Assembly (NCBI GenBank): GCA_049515535.1
Contig: JBEKTZ010000001.1
Coordinates: 60,599-80,598, forward strand
Source of the DNA: Candidatus Aminicenantales bacterium
GTDB lineage: Bacteria > Acidobacteriota > Aminicenantia > Aminicenantales > UBA4085
Reading direction: 5' to 3'
DNA length: 20,000 nucleotides
Positions within the stretch are counted from its first letter, which is position 1. Every line of letters starts with the position of its first letter. The notes below the pieces were generated by a model that worked only from the letters and a program-made list of their open reading frames with translations, was not told where the DNA came from and ran no database searches. Below are positions 2,652 through 18,373 of the stretch, piece by piece. Both the position numbers and the translations under genes were made by a program.

Positions 2652-2685
2652 TTTTGCATAAAATAAGGGTGCAAGGAGAATGAAG

Positions 2686-4482
2686 ATGAAAAAACTCGCC
2701 GCTTTAGGTTTGGCCTTTCTCACCCTGAGCTTTTTTGCGAGCGCGCAAGAAGCGAAGGACGCTAAGCCCACATCACCCTCCTTCGCCCGTTTGAGTTATG
2801 TCGACGGCAACGCCTATATCCAAAGGGCCGCCGTTCTCGCCTATGAAGAGGGGCAAGTGAACATGCCCATCGCCGAAGGCGACCGGATCGGGACGACGGA
2901 TGGGCTGGTCGAGATCTATCTGGGAAAGAAAAATTATCTGCGTCTCGACCAGAACGCCAAAGTCGATTTCCTGAACCTTCCCAAGAACAACGCCAACCTC
3001 ATCCGCGTCCGGCAATGGGCGGGCAATCTCTATCTTGACGTCGCCACTCTGGAAAAGGAAAAGGCGATCGAAGTCCTGACCTCCGACGCGACTTTTTACA
3101 TTCTCGACAAGGGCCTTTACCGGATCGACGTCAATGAGAACAAGGAAACCGAGATCCTGGTTTTTTCGGGCATGGCCGAAGCCTCGGGAGAGAACGGTTC
3201 CATGCTGGTGAAAAAAGAACAGCGTCTGTCCGTTTCCGAAGGACGCTTCCTTTCGAACCCCTCGTCGTTCTTCGCCTCCGTGAGCGACGCGTTCGACACG
3301 TTCAACGACAACAGGGACACCAAGGTCAACCGGCAGCTCGCCCGCAGATACCTGTCGGGCGATCTCGCGGACTTCGAATACGAGCTCGATGAATACGGCG
3401 ACTGGGTCAACGACGCGGAGTTCGGGAATGTCTGGGTGCCGCGCGGCCTGGCCTCCGATTGGCGGCCCTATTACTACGGCCGTTGGTCGTGGCTGCCGAT
3501 GGCCGGCTGGTGTTGGATCCCTTACGAGCCCTGGGGATGGAGCACCTTCCATTATGGCCGCTGGCAATGGGGAATGAACATGGGCTGGTATTGGATTCCG
3601 ATGAACATGTGGAGTCCCGCCTGGGTCAACTGGTGGTGGGATAACGACTACTTTGCCTGGGCGCCGATGAGCTACTGGGGTTACCCCGGCATCATCATCG
3701 ACAACTTCTACTATGGCCGCGGATGGCGCAATTACAACGAATATCCCAACAATTCACGCGCTCTGACCGTCATCCATAGAAACCAGCTCCAAGCGCATGA
3801 CATCCACAAAGCCGCTCTCGGCCCGGACACCCTCAAATCCGTGGGCCGGCTCAGCCTCGTCAACCGGGCTTTGGACGTCAAGCCGTCCGGAGACCGGCGG
3901 ATCTCGATCGAACAGATGGACGGCGGAAAGAGAGTGATCCTGCGCAAAAGCGGCGAAGGCGGAACCGCCGTTCCCACCTCGGGCCGGACGGAAAGGACGA
4001 TCGGCAAAGACCGGGAAAACGCGGCGACAAAGACGGGCGAACAAAAAGACGCTTCGGGACAGAAAGGGACCGATCCCAAAGCGATCCCTCCAAAAGTCAT
4101 CGATCGCGATAAAAAGGGCGAAACGCCTCCTCCGGATAAGACTGTCGTCGAGCGAAAGATCCGCAAAAAGGAAGAAGGCGGCGGCCCGGCGGGCGGCGCA
4201 TCCAATTCCGGCCGGAGCATGAATTCGGGTTACCCCGCCGCCAAAGAGATCTCCCGCGAGAGCTCTTCGCAGGGGACCCGCGTTTCCCGCCAAGGCTCGG
4301 TGATGGATAAATTCTACAAATTTTTCTCGGGCGAGAGAGGATCGTCTTCCCCTCGCCTCGCTTCCCCCCCGAATCGAAGCGCCGGCTCGTTCATCTCTCC
4401 ATCCGTTCCGCGGATGATGCCCTCACCCTCTCCCTCGCGAGGATCCTCAGGCTCCCATCCGAGCGTCACCAAAAAGAAATAG
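2686..4482 (+). CDS. Exported protein: signal peptide, FecR-like beta domain, Trp/Gly/Tyr/Pro-rich domain (DUF6600-like), disordered Ser/Pro/Lys-rich tail
   Basis: Signal MKKLAALGLAFLTLSFFASA|QE. ARLSYVDG..NMPIAEGDRIGT..RLDQN..GLYRIDV is FecR-like. YGDW..GNVWVP..WRPYYYGRW..EPWGWSTFHYGRW is the aromatic-rich block. SD AAGGAG (2673-2678) spacing favours ATG 2686 over 2680. Confidence 0.75.
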   Translation: MKKLAALGLAFLTLSFFASAQEAKDAKPTSPSFARLSYVDGNAYIQRAAVLAYEEGQVNMPIAEGDRIGTTDGLVEIYLGKKNYLRLDQNAKVDFLNLPKNNANLIRVRQWAGNLYLDVATLEKEKAIEVLTSDATFYILDKGLYRIDVNENKETEILVFSGMAEASGENGSMLVKKEQRLSVSEGRFLSNPSSFFASVSDAFDTFNDNRDTKVNRQLARRYLSGDLADFEYELDEYGDWVNDAEFGNVWVPRGLASDWRPYYYGRWSWLPMAGWCWIPYEPWGWSTFHYGRWQWGMNMGWYWIPMNMWSPAWVNWWWDNDYFAWAPMSYWGYPGIIIDNFYYGRGWRNYNEYPNNSRALTVIHRNQLQAHDIHKAALGPDTLKSVGRLSLVNRALDVKPSGDRRISIEQMDGGKRVILRKSGEGGTAVPTSGRTERTIGKDRENAATKTGEQKDASGQKGTDPKAIPPKVIDRDKKGETPPPDKTVVERKIRKKEEGGGPAGGASNSGRSMNSGYPAAKEISRESSSQGTRVSRQGSVMDKFYKFFSGERGSSSPRLASPPNRSAGSFISPSVPRMMPSPSPSRGSSGSHPSVTKKK

Positions 4483-4557: not shown

Positions 4558-4669
4558 TCAACCCATTCGACTCCCCGGGCTGAAGCCCGGGGTATGCTCA
4601 GGGTTAATACTGAGCGGCGCTTTTTACCCCGATTTAAAAATCGGGGTTTGGCGCCTTCGAACGTATCGA
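4558..4669. repeat. Multi-hairpin palindromic element (MITE/REP-like, non-autonomous)
   Basis: TTCGA (4566-4570)/TCGAA (4657-4661) closes three hairpins: CCCCGGGC-TGAA-GCCCGGGG (4573-4592), GCTCAG-N8-CTGAGC (4596-4615) and GGCGC..ACCCCGATTT-AA-AAATCGGGGT..GCGCC (4616-4655). Repeat status is inferred; only one copy is in the window. Confidence 0.55.
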
Positions 4670-4695
4670 CGCCTCCGAATTCTTCCCGAGCCCTT

Positions 4696-7143
4696 CTACC
4701 GTTCTTCTTTGGCTTTGGACGACGAGGCATAATCCAAGGTCAGGAGATGGTCTTCGAGGGAGCAAAACCGGGAGGGCTCGGTTCCGCTCAAAAAAGCTTC
4801 CATGAACCGCCATTTGCAGATGTTGTTCGCCCTCAGACCGGTTTTGAGATCGATGGCAAAAAATTCGATGTTCGCCGGAATTTCGAATTCCTCTCGAGCG
4901 ACCTCTCCGTTCGCCGCCAGGGCTTTTTTCTTTTCGTCCTCGACGGTATTCTTGAAAAATTCCGCCCAGGCCGGCAGAGCGGCGACGGCGCCGGCTTCGT
5001 TGGGCCCGAGCGTCCTGTTATCGTCGTAGCCGACCCAGACTCCGGCGCAGAGCGACGGAGAAAAACCGATGAACCAGGCGTCTGTGTATTTATCCGTCGT
5101 GCCGGTCTTTCCGGCCAGGGGTTTGTCGTTCAACAAACCCATGACCGTCGGATTGATGGAAGCCGTGCCGCGCTCCATGACGCCCTGCATGAGGTAGGTC
5201 ATGAGATAAGCCGTCTGGGGAGAAATGACCTCTTCGGTCTCGATCTTGTTTTCCTCGAGGATATTGCCTTCGCGATTCTCGATGCGGGTGATGAAATAAG
5301 GTTTGATCCGGACACCCTTGTTCGGAAACGTCGTATAGGCCGAAACCATTTCGGTCAAGCTGACTTCAAAAGTTCCCAACGCGAGAGACAGATAAGGATA
5401 GAGCGTCGACGTGATCCCGAATTTTCGGCAATAGTCCACTCCGACCTGGGGGGAAATATGCTCCAAGATCCTGGCCGTGACGACGTTCCGGGACTCTTCG
5501 ATGCCGGTGCGCAAGGTGACCATGCCCTTGTACGTCCGGTCGTAGTTCTTGGGCGACCAGATCGTCTTTTGCCATTTGTCCTCGAAATCCGTCGGCTCGT
5601 CGGCGATGCGGCTCGCGTTCGTGAAGCCGTTTTCGAGCGCCGCCGTGTAGAGCATGGGCTTGATGGCCGAGCCGGCCTGCCGGAACGTCTGCGCCGAGCG
5701 GTTGAGCTGGCTGCGCTGGAAGGAATACCCGCCGACCATCGCTTTGATCTGTCCGGTCCGGGGATCTTCCGCGAAGAACGCCCCTTCGACTTTGGGCTCT
5801 TGATCGAGCGCCGCCAGAAATTCTTTCTTGTCCTCATTTTTACTGATCACCCGGACCTGGATGACGTCGCCGGGCTTGATCAATCGATCGAGAGACTTCG
5901 TCTTGTCGCGATAGTCCGCGAACGCCCAGGCGATGTCGCCGTTCGACATCTTTCCGGAATAATTTTTCACTTTCACCCGGGCGTCTTTCTTGCTCACGGA
6001 AAGAACGATCGCATCCAGGACATCGCCGGGCTCGACCTTTGGCGTCAGCCAGGTCTTCAGCCGGTAGTCTTCGAGTTTCTGCCCTTTTTGCTGGAAGTCC
6101 TTGTCCTGGAGCAAGTTCACCTTGTCCATTCTCCAACCATGCCTTTTGTCCAGGTTTCGCAGGTTTCTGGTCAGGGCCTCCTCGGCGAAAGCCTGGGTGG
6201 CCGGGTTCATCGTCGTATAGATTTTCATGCCGCCGCGGAAAAGGGCGTCCTCGCCGTAGACATTGACGATATAGCGGCGGATTTCCTCAAAAAAATAGGC
6301 CCCGAAATCCGAATCCCGGCGGCTCTGGGGAAGGACGGACATCGGTCTTTTTTTCGCCTCTTCAGCCTGGGCGTTCGTGATGTAGCCTTCCTCGGCCATG
6401 CGGTTCAGCACATGATTGCGCCGGTCGAGAGTCAGCTTCGGAGATTTATACGGCGAGTACAGGGACGGCCCGCGGAAGATGCCCGCGATCATGGCCGCTT
6501 CCTCCAGGGTCAATTCGGCCGCGTTCTTTCCGAAGAAAAGATGCGACGCCGCTTCGACGCCGAAGGCGCCGTGGCCGAGGGAGAACTGGTTGCAATAAAT
6601 TTCAAAAATCTTCTTCTTCGAATATTTTTTCTCGATCCGGACGGCCAAAAACCCTTCGGCAAGCTTTCTCTGGATCGTCGGGAGAGGATGGAGAAAAAGC
6701 TGCCGGGCGAGTTGCTGGGTGATCGTGCTTCCCCCCTCCGGTTTCCGGCGGGTGAAGATCTTGAAAAGATTCTCGCGCATGGCCCTGAGAATGCCGCGCA
6801 TGTCGATGCCTTTATGCTTGAAGAACCGGGGGTCCTCGGTGGCCAGAATGGCGTTTTTCAGGACGTCCGGGATTTGATCGTAAGAAATGACGATGCGCTT
6901 CTCCGGGCCGATTTCCTTGATGAGGGTCCCGTCGTCGGCGTATATGGCCGTGAGGATACTGGGCTCATAATTTTCGAGAGAATCGATGCTGGGGATCGTC
7001 CTTTCGACCGCGATATAGGTCCCCAGGATCCCTCCGAAAAAGAGGGCCGTGGAAAAAAGGACAATCCAGAGAAGCGTCTTGATCAGGCGCTTTTTATCGC
7101 CTTTGAAGATCTTGATCTTCCAGAACTTTTTGGTTTTGAACAT
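4696..7143 (-). CDS. mrcA: Penicillin-binding protein 1A (bifunctional transglycosylase/transpeptidase)
   Basis: N-terminal TM anchor. GT51 motifs ATEDPRFFKHKGID, GGSTITQQLAR, RKLAE. OB-type insertion. Transpeptidase motifs SxxK (GSAIKP), SxN (SRN), KTGT. Confidence 0.93.
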   Translation of the reverse strand: MFKTKKFWKIKIFKGDKKRLIKTLLWIVLFSTALFFGGILGTYIAVERTIPSIDSLENYEPSILTAIYADDGTLIKEIGPEKRIVISYDQIPDVLKNAILATEDPRFFKHKGIDMRGILRAMRENLFKIFTRRKPEGGSTITQQLARQLFLHPLPTIQRKLAEGFLAVRIEKKYSKKKIFEIYCNQFSLGHGAFGVEAASHLFFGKNAAELTLEEAAMIAGIFRGPSLYSPYKSPKLTLDRRNHVLNRMAEEGYITNAQAEEAKKRPMSVLPQSRRDSDFGAYFFEEIRRYIVNVYGEDALFRGGMKIYTTMNPATQAFAEEALTRNLRNLDKRHGWRMDKVNLLQDKDFQQKGQKLEDYRLKTWLTPKVEPGDVLDAIVLSVSKKDARVKVKNYSGKMSNGDIAWAFADYRDKTKSLDRLIKPGDVIQVRVISKNEDKKEFLAALDQEPKVEGAFFAEDPRTGQIKAMVGGYSFQRSQLNRSAQTFRQAGSAIKPMLYTAALENGFTNASRIADEPTDFEDKWQKTIWSPKNYDRTYKGMVTLRTGIEESRNVVTARILEHISPQVGVDYCRKFGITSTLYPYLSLALGTFEVSLTEMVSAYTTFPNKGVRIKPYFITRIENREGNILEENKIETEEVISPQTAYLMTYLMQGVMERGTASINPTVMGLLNDKPLAGKTGTTDKYTDAWFIGFSPSLCAGVWVGYDDNRTLGPNEAGAVAALPAWAEFFKNTVEDEKKKALAANGEVAREEFEIPANIEFFAIDLKTGLRANNICKWRFMEAFLSGTEPSRFCSLEDHLLTLDYASSSKAKEER

Positions 7144-7151
7144 CCCCTGAA

Positions 7152-7180
7152 AATATAGCAGAACGCGAGGGAAAAGCCAA
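7152..7180 (-). promoter_or_regulatory. Candidate sigma70 promoter of PBP1A
   Basis: Minus strand reads TTGGCT-17 nt (ending TGc)-TATATT. Only 8 nt separate the -10 box from the ATG. Confidence 0.5.
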
Positions 7181-8049: not shown

Positions 8050-9552
8050 ATGAAAAAGGTTGTCTGGATATCGCTGGCCAGTTTCTGCCTGGGCATCCTG
8101 CTGGCCGGTTATGTATTCGTCTATTTGCCTGAGAAGAACGCTCCCCAGAAGAGTTTTCTGGATAACCGAACGGCCCCCATCGGCGCCCACCTCTTCGCGG
8201 ACGCCCCGCAGGCGATCAAGCCCGATCTGGATTTCGTGAAAATCTCCGATAAGATCGGTCCGGCGGTCTTCAAGGTCGAATGCGAAAAAGTCGAGAGGCA
8301 GCAGATGGCGGGATTTCCCGACGGTCAAGGCGACGATTTTTGGAACAGGTTCTTCGGAAGCCCCCAGACGCGCCCCCAGAGCCAAAAAGTGACCGTCCAA
8401 GGGACGGGCTTTTTCATCAGCGCCGATGGCTACGCCATCACCAATAATCACATCGTGGAGAACGGCCAAAAGGTCAAAGTCTTTACCGTGCAGGGCGATG
8501 AATACGCGGCCAAGATCATCGGCACCGACTGGCGATCGGACGTCGCCCTGATCAAAGTCGAAGCCAAGAATCTGACCTTTGCCGAGCTCGGCGATTCGGC
8601 CCAGGCCAAAGTGGGCGAATGGGTGATGGCCATCGGCAACCCGCTCGGCATGGAGCATACCGTGACGGCGGGCATCGTCAGCGCCAAAGGCCGTCAGCTC
8701 GGCCTCGGCGACGGCAGCTACGAAGACTTTATCCAGACGGATGCCGCCATCAACCGCGGCAACAGCGGCGGCCCGCTCGTCAACATGAAGGGCGAGGTCA
8801 TCGGCATCAACAGCACCATTCTCATTCCGAACGCAACCGGCGGCAATATCGGCATCGGCTTCGCCATCCCCTCGAACATGGCCAAAAAAGTCGTGACCCA
8901 GCTCAAGGATAAGGGCAAGGTCATCCGCGGCTGGCTCGGCGTCGAAGTGGCGACCCTGCCGATCGATCAGGACACGCAGAAGCTCTTGAACCTGAAATCG
9001 AAGAAAGGCGCCTTGATCAACGGCGTGACCCAGGGCGGCCCGGCCGAAAAGGCCGGATTCAAGCCGTACGACGTCGTGGTCGAAATCGACGGGCAAGTGG
9101 TCGAAAACTCCAACGATCTGCGGATGAAGATCGCCGATGTCCCCCCGGGGACGAAAGTCGAATTCACGATCATCCGCGACGGCAAGGAAAAAACCCTCCC
9201 CGCGACGATCGCCGAGCTCGAAGACAACCGGCAAAAAACGAACGTCGCCGGAACGACCAAGGACATCGGCTTGACCGTCACCGCGTTGACCCCCAATCTG
9301 GCCCGGAGATACGGAATCCGGACGACCAAGGGCCTCTTGATCACCGACGTGGACAATAGCAGCGACGCCGCCCGCAAGGGCCTTCAGCCCGGCGACATCA
9401 TTCTCGAAGTCAACCGGGAAATCGTAACCACCGAGGAACAGTGGGACAGCATCATCAATAAGAAGAAATCGGGAGATGCCCTCCTCCTCCGCATCCGCCA
9501 TGAGGCCGACGGACAATCGCAAGATCTCATCGTCACCATCAAGATCCCCTAA
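8050..9552 (+). CDS. htrA: HtrA/DegP/DegQ (Do-family) serine protease with two PDZ domains
   Basis: N-terminal hydrophobic anchor. GTGFFIS, TNNH (His), SDVALIK (Asp), IQTDAAINRGNSGGPL (Ser). PDZ1 RGWLGV..PAEKAG and PDZ2 IGLTV..GLQPGDII. SD GGAGG. Confidence 0.95.
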   Translation: MKKVVWISLASFCLGILLAGYVFVYLPEKNAPQKSFLDNRTAPIGAHLFADAPQAIKPDLDFVKISDKIGPAVFKVECEKVERQQMAGFPDGQGDDFWNRFFGSPQTRPQSQKVTVQGTGFFISADGYAITNNHIVENGQKVKVFTVQGDEYAAKIIGTDWRSDVALIKVEAKNLTFAELGDSAQAKVGEWVMAIGNPLGMEHTVTAGIVSAKGRQLGLGDGSYEDFIQTDAAINRGNSGGPLVNMKGEVIGINSTILIPNATGGNIGIGFAIPSNMAKKVVTQLKDKGKVIRGWLGVEVATLPIDQDTQKLLNLKSKKGALINGVTQGGPAEKAGFKPYDVVVEIDGQVVENSNDLRMKIADVPPGTKVEFTIIRDGKEKTLPATIAELEDNRQKTNVAGTTKDIGLTVTALTPNLARRYGIRTTKGLLITDVDNSSDAARKGLQPGDIILEVNREIVTTEEQWDSIINKKKSGDALLLRIRHEADGQSQDLIVTIKIP

Positions 9553-10404
9553 ATGAAGAAATTCACGAAATTCCATTCCCTGGGAAACGATTTTCTCATC
9601 ATCGACCGGGATGAAGTGACAGAGCTCGCGGATATCGCCGACCTGGCCCGCAAGATCTGCGAGCGCCACACGGGGGTGGGCGCCGACGGATTGCTCGTGA
9701 TTTCGGTCACCGACAAGCCTCGGGGCATCGTCAGCTTCCGGATCTTCAACGCCGATGGGTCCGAAGCCGAAATATCCGGCAACGGGCTGCGCTGCGCCGC
9801 GGCCTTCCTTTATGACCAGAAGAAGATCGAAACGGCCAAGATCCTGTTCCAGACGACCGCCGGCGATCGCGAATGCGAGCTGGTCGAAGAACAAGAGTGT
9901 CGATACTTGATCAAGATCGATCTCGGCGCGCCCCGGCTGACGTCGCGAGAGATCCCTTTCGACGACGGTTCGTTCCATGAGCGGATCATCGACTATCCCC
10001 TCATGATCAATCAGAGGGTCTATCCGATCACGGTCGTCTCCATAGGCAACCCGCATTGCGGCGTATTCGTCGACCGCTTCCCGGCCCGCATCGAATGGCA
10101 CGAGATCGGCCGGGAAATCGAACGCCACCCGTTCTTTCCCAACCGGACGAACATCGAGTTCATCCGGGTGCACAACCGCAAGGAGATCGAGGTTCTCTTC
10201 TGGGAACGCGGGGTCGGCGAGACGCTGTCCTCGGGCAGCGGTTCGACGGCGGCCGCGGTGGCGTCGATCCTGAAAAATTATACGGACAAAAAAGTCACGG
10301 TCAAAACCAGCATGGGCCAGGTCCTCGTCGAATGGGAAAAGGACAAGGTCTTCCAGACGGGGCCGGCCGAGTTCGCCTTCACCGGCTCATTCATGTTCAA
10401 ATAA
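9553..10404 (+). CDS. dapF: Diaminopimelate epimerase (DapF) homologue with Ser/Ser in place of both catalytic Cys
   Basis: KFHSLGNDF, GVGADG, IFNADGSEAEISGNG, VSIGNPH, RTNIEF, WERGVGETLSSGSG, TGPA. The ATG directly abuts the htrA stop (TAAATG). Confidence 0.85.
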   Translation: MKKFTKFHSLGNDFLIIDRDEVTELADIADLARKICERHTGVGADGLLVISVTDKPRGIVSFRIFNADGSEAEISGNGLRCAAAFLYDQKKIETAKILFQTTAGDRECELVEEQECRYLIKIDLGAPRLTSREIPFDDGSFHERIIDYPLMINQRVYPITVVSIGNPHCGVFVDRFPARIEWHEIGREIERHPFFPNRTNIEFIRVHNRKEIEVLFWERGVGETLSSGSGSTAAAVASILKNYTDKKVTVKTSMGQVLVEWEKDKVFQTGPAEFAFTGSFMFK

Positions 10405-10413
10405 GAGGATCGT

Positions 10414-12801
10414 TTATTTCCCCTTCTTCAGCGCCCGGGCGAAGACTTCTTTGATTTCGTCGACGAAAATGAACTCCATCTCCTTGGCGATGACTTTGGG
10501 GATGTCGATGAGGTCTTTTTTATTGGCCGCCGGCAGGATCATCTTTTTCACGCCCGCCCTCTGAGCGGCCAGCACTTTTTCCTTCACCCCGCCGATCGGA
10601 AGCACGTGCCCCCGGAGCGTGATCTCGCCGGTCATGGCCACGTCCCAGCTGATCTTTCTGCTGGTGCAGACCGAGATCAGCGCGGTCGCCATCGTGATGC
10701 CGGCTGAAGGGCCGTCCTTGGGAATGGCGCCCTCGGGAATATGGATATGGAAATCGTTCTGGGAAAAGATCTTGATGTCGATCCCGAGCTCCTTGGCATG
10801 GGCGCGAGCGTAGCTGAGCGCCGCATGGGCGGACTCTTTCATGACGTCCCCCAGAGACCCGGTGAGGAGCAGGCCCCCCTTTCCTTTCATCTTCGTCGCT
10901 TCCACGAAGAGCACTTCTCCCCCGGCTTCCGTCCAGGCCAGGCCCGTGGCCACGCCGACCTGGTCCTTCTTCTGGACCTGGTCCCTGAAGATCTTGGGCG
11001 GACCGAGATAAGCTTCGACATTCTGCGACGTGATCTTGTTCATTCGCCGCTTGCCTTCGGCCACCTTGCGCGCGATTTTCCGGCAGACCGCCGCAAGTTC
11101 CCGCTCGAGGTTCCGCACCCCGGCCTCCCGCGTATAAAGGGAGATGATCTTCTTGATCGCGCCGATCGTCAGCTGGATGAGCTTGGACGTCAGGGCGTTT
11201 TCCCTGATCTGCTTGGGAACGAGGTGTTGGACGGCAATCTCGAGCTTTTCCTCTTCCGTGTACCCCGGAAGCTGGATGACTTCCATCCGGTCCCGGAAGG
11301 CCGGTTGGATCGGATCGAGAAGATTCGCCGTCGTTATGAACATGACCTTGGACAGGTCGAACGGCACGCCGAGATAGCTGTCCCGGAACGAATAGTTCTG
11401 CTCCGGGTCCAGGACTTCGAGCAGGGCCGAGGAGGGGTCGCCGCGAAAATCGGCGCCGATCTTGTCCACCTCGTCCATCATGAAAACGGGGTTATTCGAT
11501 CCGGCCCGCCGCAAACCCTGGATGATGCGGCCGGGGAGCGCGCCGACATACGTCCGGCGATGGCCGCGGATTTCAGCCTCGTCGCGAACGCCGCCGAGCG
11601 AGATGCGGATGAACTCCCGGCCGAGGGCCCGGGCGATCGATTTGCCGAGGGACGTTTTTCCGACGCCCGGAGGTCCGACAAAACAGAGAATGGGACCTTT
11701 GATCTTTTTCGACAGGGTCCGAACCGCCAGGTATTCGAGGATTCGCCCTTTCACTTTGTGCAGACCGTAATGGTCTTCATCGAGGATCCGCTTGGCCTTC
11801 TTCAAATCGAGATTGTCAACGGTGCTTTTGTTCCAGGGCAGGGCGACCATCCAGTCCAGGTAATTGCGCACGACGGTCGTTTCGGCCGACTCGGGATGCA
11901 TCTGGGCCAGGCGGCTGATTTGCTTTTCGAGCTCCTCGCGGACTTCATCGGAGACCTTGAGCTTTTTCAAGATATCCTGGTAGCCTTTGATCTCTTCCTG
12001 GAGCTCGTTGCCTTCGCCGAGCTCCTTTTGGATCGCTTTCATCTGCTGCCGCAGGAAATACTGGCGCTGGAGCTTGTCCATTTCGCCTTTCGCCTCGGTG
12101 CTGATGCGCGACTGGACGTCCAGGATTTCCAACTCCTTGGCCAGGAGCTCGTAGACTTTTTTCAGACGCTGGACGGGGTTCGTGATCTCCAAGATGGCCT
12201 GAGCCTCGCTGACTTTGAGTTCAAGGTTGGCCGCGGTCAGGTCGGCCAGACGTCCCGGCTCATCGACATTCGTGGCGATGATCAGGACTTCGGGTGGAAG
12301 GTTCTTCCCGAGCGAGGTGGCCTTTTCGAGACCCGTCCGGACGTTTCGGACAAGCGCTTCGCTCTCGAGCGTTTTTTCCGCCGCCTCGGGCTCCTGGATA
12401 ATCGTGACCTGGGCCGTCAAATGCCCGTTTTCTTCCTCGAAGCTCTCGATCCTGGCCCGGCTCAGGCCCTGGGCCAGGATCCGGATCCGGCCGTCAGGCA
12501 GCTTGAGCATCCTCATGATCAGGGCAACCGTGCCCATGTCGTAAACCTCTTCTCTTTTGGGATCTTCCGTCTCCGTGTCCTTCTGGGTCAGGAGGAGGAC
12601 CATCCGGTGCGAAGAAAGCGCCTGGTCGATCGCGTTTTTGGATTTTTCGCGGCCGACGAAAAGGGGCACGATCATATAGGGAAAAACGACGATGTCGCGC
12701 AGGAGCAGGATGGGAAGCTTTTGGGGGATGTTCAGCTTCTGTTCTTTCTCTTCGATGATATCGTCGATTGGGCCGTCGGCTTTGGTGTCTTTCTCAGCCA
12801 T
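10414..12801 (-). CDS. lon: ATP-dependent protease La (LonA)
   Basis: LON N-domain ([13 protein letters not shown]), Walker [10 protein letters not shown], Walker B MMDEVDK, catalytic PKDGPSAG and GGVKEK. SD GGAGG. Confidence 0.97.
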
Positions 12802-13379: not shown

Positions 13380-13835
13380 TTATTTTTCCTTGAGGAGAGT
13401 CTCCAGTTCCTGTTTGAATTCCATGACGTCACGAAATTCCCGGTAAACGGAGGCAAAGCGGACATAAGCCACTTTATCCAGGGCCTTGAGCTTGTCCATC
13501 ACGAACTGGCCGATCTCCGCCGCCTTCAGTTCCTTTTCCGGCCGTTCCTGGAGTTTGGATTCGATTTCCTCGATGATCTCCTCGAGCTTGTTGACGGCTA
13601 TGGGCCTTTTTTCGCAGGCCCGGAGCATGCCGCGCAAGAGCTTCTGCGGGTCGAAAAGCTGCCGGGAACCGTCCTTTTTGACGATCATATAGGGGATCTC
13701 TTCGATTTTCTCGTAGGTCGTGAACCGGCGGGCGCAGGCCAAGCATTCCCGACGCCGCCGGATCGAGACGCCTTTTTTGCTTTCCCTGGAATCGATGACC
13801 TTGCTTTCCAAGTGGCCGCAATAGGGGCATCTCAT
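13380..13835 (-). CDS. nrdR: Transcriptional repressor NrdR (Zn ribbon + ATP cone)
   Basis: MRCPYCG..SKVIDSR..IRRRRECLAC..RFTTYE..VKKDG..DKVAYVRFASVYREF. The true start is ATG 13835, overlapping the upstream stop (ATGA). Confidence 0.96.
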   Translation of the reverse strand: MRCPYCGHLESKVIDSRESKKGVSIRRRRECLACARRFTTYEKIEEIPYMIVKKDGSRQLFDPQKLLRGMLRACEKRPIAVNKLEEIIEEIESKLQERPEKELKAAEIGQFVMDKLKALDKVAYVRFASVYREFRDVMEFKQELETLLKEK

Positions 13836-14863
13836 GGCTTGTCCGTCTCTCCGAGTTTTTTCAACTGAAACAACGTCAGACCCTCTTTCCATAATATAAC
13901 ATAACCGACGAGGCAATTCATCACCAACTGGATGGCGTGAACGACGACGGTCAGGCCGACGGCAAGATTGGGATCGAGATGGAAAAGCTGGGTCAAGCCG
14001 AACTGGCTGAAGGAATGGAACCCGCCGATCATGCCCGGCGTCGGAATGGACGCCCCGATCATCGTCAGGAAGATGTAGGGAATGAGGAAAAAGAACGGGA
14101 TGTTCACCCGGTAGGCCAGGAAAAAAACCCAATAAAAGAAAATGATGCCGAGCCAGACGACAAACGATAATCCTATATATATCAGCAAGTTACCAAGAGA
14201 ATGAAAGAATTTCAGCCCATCGATGAACTCGTGGAGCAGGATCAAAATCCTGCCGACCGGTTTCTGGGGAAACGGCTTCAATATTCGGGCCGTCAAGCTC
14301 AAGGCTTTTTCCTTGAAAAAATAAAAAAGGAGGCTCACGATGAGCAGAATGGAGGCGAAAGCCACGCCGACGATCCCCCAGAGGTAGAGCTTCGAATATG
14401 TCTCCGCCTGGATCTTGAACGTCGCCGCATAGAGAGGCTTGGCCAGCAGGAAAACGCCCAGGAGAAAGCACATGGTGAACATATCGAAAATCCGCTCGAC
14501 GATCACCGTGCCCACGACGAACCCGGGCCGGACGCCCTCTTTTTTGGCCACATAGAGGGGTTTGACGAGTTCTCCCAGCCGCCCTGGGAGAAGGAAGGTC
14601 ACGGTGAATCCGACGGCGTTGCCGGCGAAAAGGTTGTAGAATTTCACGTCCTTTTTTTCATGAATCAGCAGATATTTCCAGCGCAGCGCGCGCGTCAGGA
14701 GATGAAGCGGCGTCAGCAATATCGCCAGGGCGAAAATCGCGATATTCGCGTGGGTCAGCGAGCGCCAGACTTCCCCCCAATCCTTGACGCTATGGAAAAA
14801 AAAGAACAAGAGGATTCCGGTGATAAGGAGAACCACGGCCAGACGAACCCATGTTTTCTTCAT
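13832..14863 (-). CDS. Lysylphosphatidylglycerol-synthase TM region / UPF0104 flippase-like membrane protein
   Basis: Polytopic, 343 aa. Family motifs RALRWKYLL, LLPGRLGELVK, VIVERIFD, IPTPGMIGGF. Confidence 0.85.
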   Translation of the reverse strand: MKKTWVRLAVVLLITGILLFFFFHSVKDWGEVWRSLTHANIAIFALAILLTPLHLLTRALRWKYLLIHEKKDVKFYNLFAGNAVGFTVTFLLPGRLGELVKPLYVAKKEGVRPGFVVGTVIVERIFDMFTMCFLLGVFLLAKPLYAATFKIQAETYSKLYLWGIVGVAFASILLIVSLLFYFFKEKALSLTARILKPFPQKPVGRILILLHEFIDGLKFFHSLGNLLIYIGLSFVVWLGIIFFYWVFFLAYRVNIPFFFLIPYIFLTMIGASIPTPGMIGGFHSFSQFGLTQLFHLDPNLAVGLTVVVHAIQLVMNCLVGYVILWKEGLTLFQLKKLGETDKP

Positions 14864-16915: not shown

Positions 16916-18373
16916 CTACCGGCGCTCGGGTTCGGCGTGAACGAGCACCCGGACCAAACCCGGGATCCTGTCTTTCAAGCGTTCCTCGATGCGGGTGGAA
17001 ACATCATGGACTTGGATGATCGAAAGCTGTTTCTCGAACTGGCAATGGAGCGTGACCGAGCATCTATCCGCATGACGCCGGATCATGACGTTGTGGCAGC
17101 GGGAGGCGCCGGCGATCTCGTTCGTCAGCCGCTTGACCGTCTCCACAAGATCCGGCTCCCGGGCCGTCACGTCCTCGCCGCTGCCCATGCCGGTGCCGCG
17201 GGATTCGATATGGGTGTTGATCTGGGCGATCTCGGGCATGTCCTCTTTCAGGTCCTTTTCCATACGCGTCGCCAGTTCGTGGGCCTGCTGCAGAGAGAGA
17301 TGGTCGTCGACTTCCAAATGGAGATCGGCGTAGACGCGGTCCCGGTCCTCGTGCAAGCTGATATTGTGCACGCTCATCTGGTTCCGGTAGGCTATGGCCC
17401 GGATCCGCTTGGCTTTGGTCTCGCGCTCGATCTCGCGCGGGTCGGTGTGAATGACGACGTCGGCGCCGGGAGCGACGCTCTGCACGCAGGCTTCCACCGA
17501 TTCGGCGATGGCGTGGGTCCGCTCAAAGGACAAATTGCGATCCACGTCCACGGTCATGTCTACGAAGACGCGGGGACCGGATCGCCGGAGCCGGATATGG
17601 CCGACGCTCAATACGCCCTCGAGCCCGCCGGCGGCAGCGGAGATCTTCTGGGCCAGCCCGTCGGGCGCCCGGTCCAACAGGACATCCACGGTCCGCTTGC
17701 CGAGCCGGTAGCTGACGAACAGGACGATGAACGCGACCCCCAGCGCGGAGGCGGCGTCGGCCTTCAGTAAAAGCGCCGCGTGGCGGGGAAAAACGTTTTT
17801 CCCGAGCCAGACGAGGACCAGGCCGCCGATGACCACGCTCGAGCTCCAGACGTCCGTCGAGAAGTGAAGGGCGTCGGCCTCCAAGGCCTGGCTGTGATGT
17901 TTCCGAGCGGCCCGGGAGAGCATCCGCGACCGGCTCACGTCGATCCCGATGGAAGCGATCATCACCAGGAAGGCATAGAGGCTGGGATCGATCTCTATGG
18001 CTTGAAAAGCGATGCGGTGGACGGCCTCATAGATGATCCAGGCACAGGTGACAAAGAGCAGCACGGTTTCGACAAGGGCGGAAAAGTTCTCGATCTTGCC
18101 GTGGCCGTAGGGATGGTCGCGATCGGCCGGCTTGTCCGAAACGCGCACGGCCAGGAAAGTGATAAAAGCCGCGATCAGGTCAAGGCCGGAATGCGCGGCC
18201 TCGGCCAGGATGCCCAGGCTTCCCGTGATCAGCCCCACGGCCAATTTCATGGACGTGAGGAAAAGAGCGGCGATGACGGAACTGCCCGCAGCGGACCTTT
18301 TCTCCTTTTCGGCGAGGCGCGTGGTCGAGGCTTCTTTCGAGGGCGACGTTTTCAAAGATAAGCTCCTCGGCAT
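16916..18373 (-). CDS. Cation diffusion facilitator (FieF/CzcD-like) with three tandem C-terminal dimerisation domains
   Basis: EAAHSGLD (HxxxD), KPADRDHPYGHGKIE, ADALHFSTD. Three C-terminal repeats end in IHTDP, THIES and VHAEP. Confidence 0.9.
   Translation of the reverse strand: MPRSLSLKTSPSKEASTTRLAEKEKRSAAGSSVIAALFLTSMKLAVGLITGSLGILAEAAHSGLDLIAAFITFLAVRVSDKPADRDHPYGHGKIENFSALVETVLLFVTCAWIIYEAVHRIAFQAIEIDPSLYAFLVMIASIGIDVSRSRMLSRAARKHHSQALEADALHFSTDVWSSSVVIGGLVLVWLGKNVFPRHAALLLKADAASALGVAFIVLFVSYRLGKRTVDVLLDRAPDGLAQKISAAAGGLEGVLSVGHIRLRRSGPRVFVDMTVDVDRNLSFERTHAIAESVEACVQSVAPGADVVIHTDPREIERETKAKRIRAIAYRNQMSVHNISLHEDRDRVYADLHLEVDDHLSLQQAHELATRMEKDLKEDMPEIAQINTHIESRGTGMGSGEDVTAREPDLVETVKRLTNEIAGASRCHNVMIRRHADRCSVTLHCQFEKQLSIIQVHDVSTRIEERLKDRIPGLVRVLVHAEPERR

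Follow-up and report, generated by a model that had tools for sequence, protein, structure and literature searches.

The window analysed here, a stretch of 20,000 nucleotides from the genome of a Candidatus Aminicenantales bacterium (contig JBEKTZ010000001.1 of assembly GCA_049515535.1), contains a dapF gene whose product has serine at both positions that are held by the catalytic cysteines in diaminopimelate (DAP) epimerases. The gene probably encodes a working Ser/Ser DAP epimerase that serves as the housekeeping enzyme of the organism, a reading to which a probability of about 0.8 is given. We infer the activity and the chemistry of the protein from the strict conservation of the two serines, the intact binding motifs, the presence of a single copy and the need of the pathway for such an enzyme.

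Active-site motifs of the dapF product

Among the epimerases that need no cofactor, DapF is the textbook two-thiol example; it is also an antibiotic target. The dapF gene of the window (positions 9553..10404, plus strand) encodes a protein of 283 residues, P0001, that belongs to this family: it contains two PF01678 domains (177.9 bits in two stretches, against 34.7), and the score of the whole protein with TIGR00652 is 241.6, above the equivalog cut-off of 114.65. Residues 3-279 align with positions 2-267 of the 270 positions of the TIGR00652 profile, nearly end to end, which bears out the full-length reading frame described in the initial annotation.

The first active-site motif reads EAEISGNG (9763..9786, plus strand) and the second ETLSSGSG (10219..10242, plus strand). 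Ser75 (codon TCC, 9775-9777) replaces the first catalytic cysteine, and Ser227 (codon TCG, 10231-10233) the second. Both assignments had been made in the initial annotation and were recovered in the translation and in the DNA. The catalytic pair is taken to be Cys73/Cys217 in the numbering of Haemophilus influenzae DapF, and the phmmer alignment with the Anabaena enzyme (PDB 9mro) pairs Ser75 and Ser227 with the cysteines of its MCGNG and LACGTG motifs. The cysteine pair characteristic of the family is therefore missing from P0001, as Ser75 and Ser227 stand at those positions.

The motifs proposed to bind DAP are all present, as previously noted: GND at residues 11-13, FNADGS at 65-70, GNPH at 165-168, TNIEF at 199-203 and ERG at 218-220. 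Across 113 aligned DapFs of the Ser/Ser and Cys/Cys forms, residues N12, N66, G76, N77, N200, E218, G220, T224, G228 and G230 are invariant, and N166, H168 and R219 are at least 90% conserved. Their roles in DAP binding are taken from the H. influenzae structures.

P0001 contains five cysteines (Cys36, Cys81, Cys108, Cys116 and Cys169), so that the earlier description of a cysteine-free enzyme does not hold; only the catalytic pair is devoid of cysteine. The residue following the first motif, given previously as Cys80, is Cys81. Cys81 and Cys169 are invariant in 121 of 121 close Ser/Ser sequences. In the 113-sequence alignment, Cys81 is at least 90% conserved and GNPHC is the consensus around Cys169. 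Since both are equally conserved in Cys/Cys DapFs, the alignment identifies them as probable family-wide residues and not as stand-ins for the catalytic pair.

Predicted structure

An AlphaFold2 model of P0001 computed with the 113-sequence alignment has a pLDDT of 96.7 and a pTM of 0.92, and displays the predicted two-domain α/β fold of DapF. In the model, helices 76-88 and 228-240 begin directly after Ser75 and Ser227. Both serines are thus predicted to lie at the N-termini of the central helices, which is the geometry of the DapF catalytic residues. The Foldseek matches include 9mro (TM-score 0.88) and the Pseudomonas aeruginosa enzyme 8qzy (TM-score 0.90), with 34-38% identity.

Over the set of canonical Cys/Cys DapFs (EC 5.1.1.7) that also includes Bacillus anthracis 2otn and H. 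influenzae 1gqz, TM-scores are 0.84-0.90 and identities 31-38%. The fold, the motifs and the substrate-binding residues are shared with P0001, as is the role in the pathway, judged by context, whereas these enzymes have cysteine where P0001 has serine at both catalytic positions and differ also at positions 216, 84, 252 and 226. No natural Ser/Ser DapF was found among the 17 sequence-matched PDB entries and the Foldseek matches, in which the sole serine forms are the engineered C73S (2q9h) and C217S (2q9j) variants of the H. influenzae enzyme. These have the same fold (TM-scores 0.84-0.85) and one catalytic serine each. They are, however, laboratory single mutants in which the change is reported to hinder catalysis (PMC12039745), whereas P0001 carries both serines naturally, and they are conserved throughout a clade of phylum level.

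Conservation of the serine pair and selection

The close set consisted of the query and its best 120 homologous proteins, with identities of 70-99%, those with a taxon name being from Aminicenantes or Acidobacteriota. Serine occupies both catalytic positions in all 121, a conservation far beyond chance. The homologues are labelled plainly as diaminopimelate epimerase by annotation pipelines. At the nucleotide level, the codons found at site 75 in 86 Ser/Ser loci are TCC (37), TCG (25), TCA (14), TCT (5) and AGC (5), and those at site 227 are TCC (38), TCG (33), TCA (11), TCT (3) and AGC (1). The catalytic codons of 62 Cys/Cys loci are TGC or TGT. As stated in the initial annotation, TCG is two changes away from TGY; TCC, however, is a single change away from TGC.

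The dN/dS ratio of dapF is 0.145 and 0.166 relative to the two nearest loci, with dS of 0.77-0.94, near saturation; more distant pairs of loci are saturated. The suggestion that such sequences form a conserved clade under purifying selection agrees with these ratios of about 0.15 and with the trees described below, in which the Ser/Ser clade of the window comprises 83 of 159 or 119 of 305 rows.

Distribution of the catalytic pairs

An exhaustive search of representative sequences gave 20,073 matches at E ≤ 0.001, and the catalytic pair was read in the query and the best 150 of them: 100 are Cys/Cys, 41 Ser/Ser, 4 Ser/Cys and 2 Cys/Ser, the other 4 being fragments. A scan of named genomes, with one genome per species, combined one serine-specific and one general pattern and is therefore a biased mix. 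It returned 80 loci, of which 37 are Ser/Ser, 38 Cys/Cys, 4 Cys/Ser and 1 Ser/Cys. The titles of the Ser/Ser loci are Aminicenantes, Blastocatellia, Terriglobia, Bryobacterales, Pyrinomonadaceae, Acidobacteriaceae and similar, and the Cys/Cys loci come from Desulfuromonadia, Bacteroidota, Nitrospirota, Bacillota, Planctomycetota and others.

Eight Ser/Ser loci (L019-L021, L027, L031, L037, L042 and L086) bear the label of another phylum or none, and all eight nest in the acidobacterial clade. Six of them (L019, L020, L021, L027, L031 and L086) are contigs of metagenome-assembled genomes titled Eubacteriales, Clostridia, Heliomicrobium or Actinomycetota, and these labels are probably wrong. L019-L021 display the htrA-dapF-lon synteny of Aminicenantia, with 55-80% identity.

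TIGR00652 matches were found in 199 of 201 genomes of the phylum, nearly all as a single match (196 of 198 without the unpublished G023, G048 and G145). The catalytic pair was read in 80 of them, a non-random draw restricted to published genomes: 30 were the best-scoring, 40 were chosen to cover further families and 10 were low-scoring. The pair is Ser/Ser in 50, Cys/Cys in 24 and Cys/Ser in 5. In the last genome (G013), dapF is split over two contigs with a serine in each half. Among the 24 Cys/Cys rows, those of G018 and G035 correspond to weak DapF-like proteins under the family cut-off. Tallied over 58 of the 69 families of the 201-genome sample, the pair is Ser/Ser in 32 families (one being the split case), Cys/Cys in 20, Cys/Ser in 5 and mixed in 1. 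In the class of the window, it is Ser/Ser in 11 of the 11 genomes read, out of 18 sampled. In most of the Acidobacteriota families read, the Ser/Ser form is thus the sole DapF.

Several unusual homologues were met in this sample. The weak proteins of G035 (L170/L173, family f35) and G018 (L171/L172, family f24) score 59-65 bits, below the cut-off, and have a cysteine doublet, ETLCCG, at the second site. Some genomes of family f35 (G087, G099 and G143) have three matches each and possess a full Ser/Ser DapF as well. In family f6, which belongs to the class of the window, L167 (G081) and L169 (G057) are very divergent Ser/Ser DapFs on a long branch, with TIGR00652 scores of 122-156 bits; their second motif is degraded to SSTG, the otherwise invariant Gly228 being lost. 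Selective constraint may have relaxed in these proteins, or their role may have changed.

DapF subtypes of the phylum and recurrence of the serine pair

The DapFs of the phylum fall into two subtypes, the V-GETxSSG type of the window and a type with a one-residue insertion, VExETLxCG, which is 22-34% identical to P0001. The second subtype retains Cys/Cys members, and Cys/Ser hybrids exist. Ser/Ser sequences occur within the insertion subtype too (families f9 and f27; f10), beside Cys/Cys and Cys/Ser ones.

A FastTree phylogeny of 159 rows, computed without the two catalytic columns, places P0001 in a Ser/Ser clade with 83 members and requires at least 11 changes of state. Adding representatives (305 rows) enlarges this clade to 119 members and raises the number of required changes to 17. 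An IQ-TREE analysis of 57 rows supports the split between the two subtypes with an SH-aLRT of 100. Forcing its 24 Ser/Ser rows into a single clade costs 80.8 log-likelihood units, with a p-AU of 0.00047, the group submitted to this test having been named after the FastTree result had been seen. Judged from these trees and the AU test, the Ser/Ser pair arose more than once. Common descent of P0001 with the characterised Ser/Ser enzymes can therefore not be assumed.

In a comparison of 127 Ser/Ser with 162 Cys/Cys sequences, the positions that distinguish the two forms include 216 (F/I versus V/T), 84 (A versus K/R), 252 (T versus L) and 226 (S versus A). The change of Ala226 to serine is the only one that recurs in independent Ser/Ser and Cys/Ser lineages; 9 of the 162 sequences of the Cys/Cys form have Ser226 as well. 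Positions 84, 216 and 252 were considered as compensating changes and rejected, as their differences are not common to the independent Ser/Ser lineages. They may represent the history of the clade rather than compensation.

The diaminopimelate pathway in the genome

The gene of the window is the single DAP_epimerase gene of the genome, which is 94.15% complete (3.45 Mb in 32 contigs). The genome also contains lysA (313 bits, cut-off 297.9) and murE (491 bits). A cluster on contig C4 encodes DapA (246.5 bits, cut-off 206.15), ThrB, DapD_Ac (299.8 bits, cut-off 231.75), an M20 deacylase and a PatA-like aminotransferase. From its gene content, this cluster constitutes the acetylase branch, which ends in LL-DAP. 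The cluster lies outside the window (G000:C4:100425-105124), and the homoserine kinase gene thrB is situated between dapA and dapD_Ac.

The initial annotation had called for a search for a second dapF, ddh or dapL, together with lysA and murE. Besides the single dapF and the presence of lysA and murE, no Ddh was found in the genome, nor in any of the 201 genomes of the phylum at E ≤ 1e-10 (0 of 198 without G023, G048 and G145). The DapL route (TIGR03542 and TIGR03540) was rejected, as only aminotransferase matches far below the thresholds were obtained, and the route to LL-DAP is assigned to the acetylase branch. The genome thus combines a branch to LL-DAP with lysA and murE, and has no Ddh bypass. 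Two proteins match PF01168, one of the Alr type and one of the size of YggS; this search found no additional Alr2/DapF2-like gene. The one Alr-type PLP racemase could in principle moonlight.

Across the phylum, 131 of 201 genomes have a lysA match at E ≤ 1e-30 (128 of 198 without the three unpublished ones), and 94 of the 201 score over the cut-off. As lysA is found in only these 131, many DapF-bearing genomes may use DapF for the wall alone. The 70 genomes without lysA at E ≤ 1e-30 include whole families that have DapF (f25, 0 of 16; f6, the family of the divergent L167 and L169, 0 of 7; f24, 0 of 4). These lineages may have another route to lysine, or may be auxotrophs in which DapF is retained for wall synthesis.

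Genomic neighbourhood

Directly upstream of dapF lies the gene of an HtrA/DegP-type serine protease with two PDZ domains (8050..9552, plus strand; TIGR02037 score 460.9, cut-off 416.2). Its stop codon TAA (9550-9552) abuts the ATG of dapF at 9553, with 0 nt between the genes. This adjacency agrees with the initial annotation, and the translational coupling it proposed may follow from it. On the other side, lon (endopeptidase La; 10414..12801, minus strand; TIGR00763, 983.8 bits) is convergent with dapF, the stop codons being 9 nt apart. The htrA gene immediately precedes dapF in each of the 7 Aminicenantia-type loci (L017-L023), and lon is downstream in 5 of these 7. In the remaining 73 loci, neither gene is near dapF.

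The neighbours of dapF were annotated for 20 Ser/Ser loci of other classes, covering 57 of 109 flanking open reading frames. A PBP4-type D-Ala-D-Ala carboxypeptidase gene is directly upstream in 4 of the 20 (L035, L036, L038 and L047). A gene resembling PfkB-type sugar kinases is upstream in 6 (L024, L025, L027, L029, L033 and L041), and is preceded in 3 of these by an MTA phosphorylase gene. Linkage of the dapF neighbourhood to the cell wall is weak at best.

Other open reading frames of the window deserve mention. An 854-residue frame (4594-7158, plus strand) has no match in Pfam or NCBIfam and is preceded by the gene of a 600-residue DUF6600 protein (2680-4482, plus strand). A CDF cation-efflux protein of 485 residues (16916-18373, minus strand) matches ZT_dimer in three stretches, and its cytoplasmic domain appears to be repeated. 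The NrdR frame (13380-14132, minus strand) is extended at the N-terminus by about 99 residues, its zinc ribbon beginning at residue 100, and overlaps a flippase-like frame (13832-14863); the true start of NrdR is probably internal.

Discussion

In the proposed scheme, the acetylase branch (dapA, DapD_Ac, the PatA-like aminotransferase and the M20 deacylase) would make LL-DAP, which P0001 would convert to meso-DAP, and meso-DAP would feed MurE for peptidoglycan and LysA for lysine. Within a protein predicted to retain the two-domain fold of DapF together with all the substrate-binding motifs, Ser75 and Ser227 would take the place of the thiol/thiolate pair in a two-base 1,1-proton transfer. Against this reading, engineered Cys-to-Ser changes in related enzymes are reported to hinder catalysis, and have been used as an aid to crystallisation (PMC11602996, PMC12039745).

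That such enzymes might already have been reported was anticipated in the initial annotation, and the Ser/Ser phenomenon itself is in print. Two-serine DapFs with the same overall fold are described by Lamer, van Belkum, Chen et al. (J Mol Biol 437:169375, 2025), as related in PMC13728532 (Proteins 2026). According to the same source, these natural enzymes are catalytic, with a scaffold tuned to serine; replacing serine by cysteine inactivated the Ser/Ser DapF of Anabaena sp. YBS01; and this cyanobacterium encodes a Cys/Cys DapF as well as a Ser/Ser one, which may help it to withstand oxidative stress. Compared by description, P0001 resembles these enzymes in having both catalytic serines in the DapF fold, naturally conserved (121 of 121 close sequences; 83 of 159 tree rows). 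The Anabaena Ser/Ser enzyme as reported stands beside a Cys/Cys DapF, whereas P0001 is the only copy. A literature search on serine and cysteine in acidobacterial DapF found nothing, a search for serines in place of cysteines led to no relevant paper other than PMC13728532, and no relevant acidobacterial species description naming meso-diaminopimelic acid was found. What is added here is the clade-wide state of sole copy, the subtype with Cys/Cys members, the hybrids and the rejection of a single origin, all of which may already be in print as well.

Other systems dispense in part or in full with the thiol pair. EcL-DER, the Thr/Cys aspartate/glutamate racemase of Escherichia coli, is likewise a cofactor-independent two-base enzyme with a hydroxyl in place of one cysteine, but it belongs to another superfamily, has only one cysteine replaced and is reported to be one-directional (PMC8142540). 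Staphylococcus DapF2 also produces meso-DAP without a thiol pair (GapMind 2026, PMC13759103), but this PLP-dependent, Alr2-like enzyme has an unrelated fold and a cofactor, and the PF01168 search revealed no further Alr2-like gene in the genome studied here.

An enzyme of DapF fold with a changed substrate or reaction, such as another racemase or an eliminating or dehydrating activity, is improbable. Loss of a catalytic cysteine does accompany new chemistry in related superfamilies, and members of the proline racemase family that have lost a cysteine become dehydratases. Cys-to-Ser mutants of glutamate racemase are reported to carry out elimination reactions (PMC8142540), and DapF homologues acting on other substrates exist, for example HisR (as described in PMC11602996) and the O-ureidoserine racemase 7vdy. 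P0001, however, scores as an equivalog-level DapF at twice the cut-off, and the motifs in contact with DAP are intact and shared by the Ser/Ser and Cys/Cys forms. It is also the only DapF of this genome, which encodes LL-DAP production together with lysA and murE, and a single TIGR00652 match is found in nearly all of the 201 genomes of the phylum. The initial annotation had set a Ser/Ser epimerase beside a new reaction or substrate; the former is the best-supported alternative and the latter gained no support.

A pseudo-enzyme, catalytically dead or very slow, that persists in some other function such as that of a protein partner, with meso-DAP supplied by a promiscuous PLP racemase, is likewise very unlikely. 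Deletion of dapF in E. coli causes no growth defect, as another racemase supplies some meso-DAP, and the PLP-type DapF2 known from Staphylococcus complements this deletion, as reported in PMC13759103. Because the E. coli mutant grows normally, the need of the pathway is no proof of activity. Moreover, E. coli DapF is reported to moonlight with RppH in a role for which epimerase activity is not needed (PMC13728532). Against a pseudo-enzyme, serine specifically has been kept at both sites through all the TCN codons and AGC, and the substrate-binding residues are conserved in the 113-sequence alignment. The genome has only the Alr-type and the YggS-sized proteins and no extra Alr2-like copy, and the natural Ser/Ser DapFs are reported to be catalytic (PMC13728532).

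An error of sequencing or assembly, or a recent decay private to this genome, was already doubted in the initial annotation and has a negligible probability, and nothing was found in its favour. Many independent assemblies contribute to the 121 of 121 homologues with a Ser/Ser pair, and the same pair occurs in 37 of 80 named-genome loci and in 50 of 80 phylum genomes; the frame is intact and dN/dS is about 0.15.

A working Ser/Ser epimerase being the preferred reading, a broader proposal is put forward tentatively, at somewhat less than even odds. The acidobacterial Ser/Ser origin would be separate from the cyanobacterial one; the Ser/Ser form would have served most of the phylum, including anaerobic members, as sole DAP epimerase over a very long period; and the switch would have occurred at least two to four times within the phylum through viable Cys/Ser hybrids, with Ala226Ser as a recurrent companion. 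Aminicenantia are mostly anaerobes, and the Ser/Ser clade spans Aminicenantia together with soil Terriglobia and Blastocatellia. An oxygen-related rationale, such as the possible oxidation resistance suggested in the initial annotation, is thus not obvious, and oxidative stress would be a poor general explanation of the serine pair. If the broader proposal is true, oxidative stress would not be the general driver of the change from cysteine to serine, and the hybrids would constitute a natural series on how serine deprotonates the α-carbon.

The design of DapF inhibitors, among them aziridino-DAP and thiol reagents, centres on the cysteines. Ser/Ser enzymes may escape such thiol-directed inhibitors as well as redox inactivation by disulfide formation, and active-site rules based on cysteine would miss them. 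A serine pair doing the job of DapF changes the mechanistic picture, a change that is already in print for other organisms (PMC13728532), and in the Acidobacteriota the Ser/Ser form is no accessory second copy.
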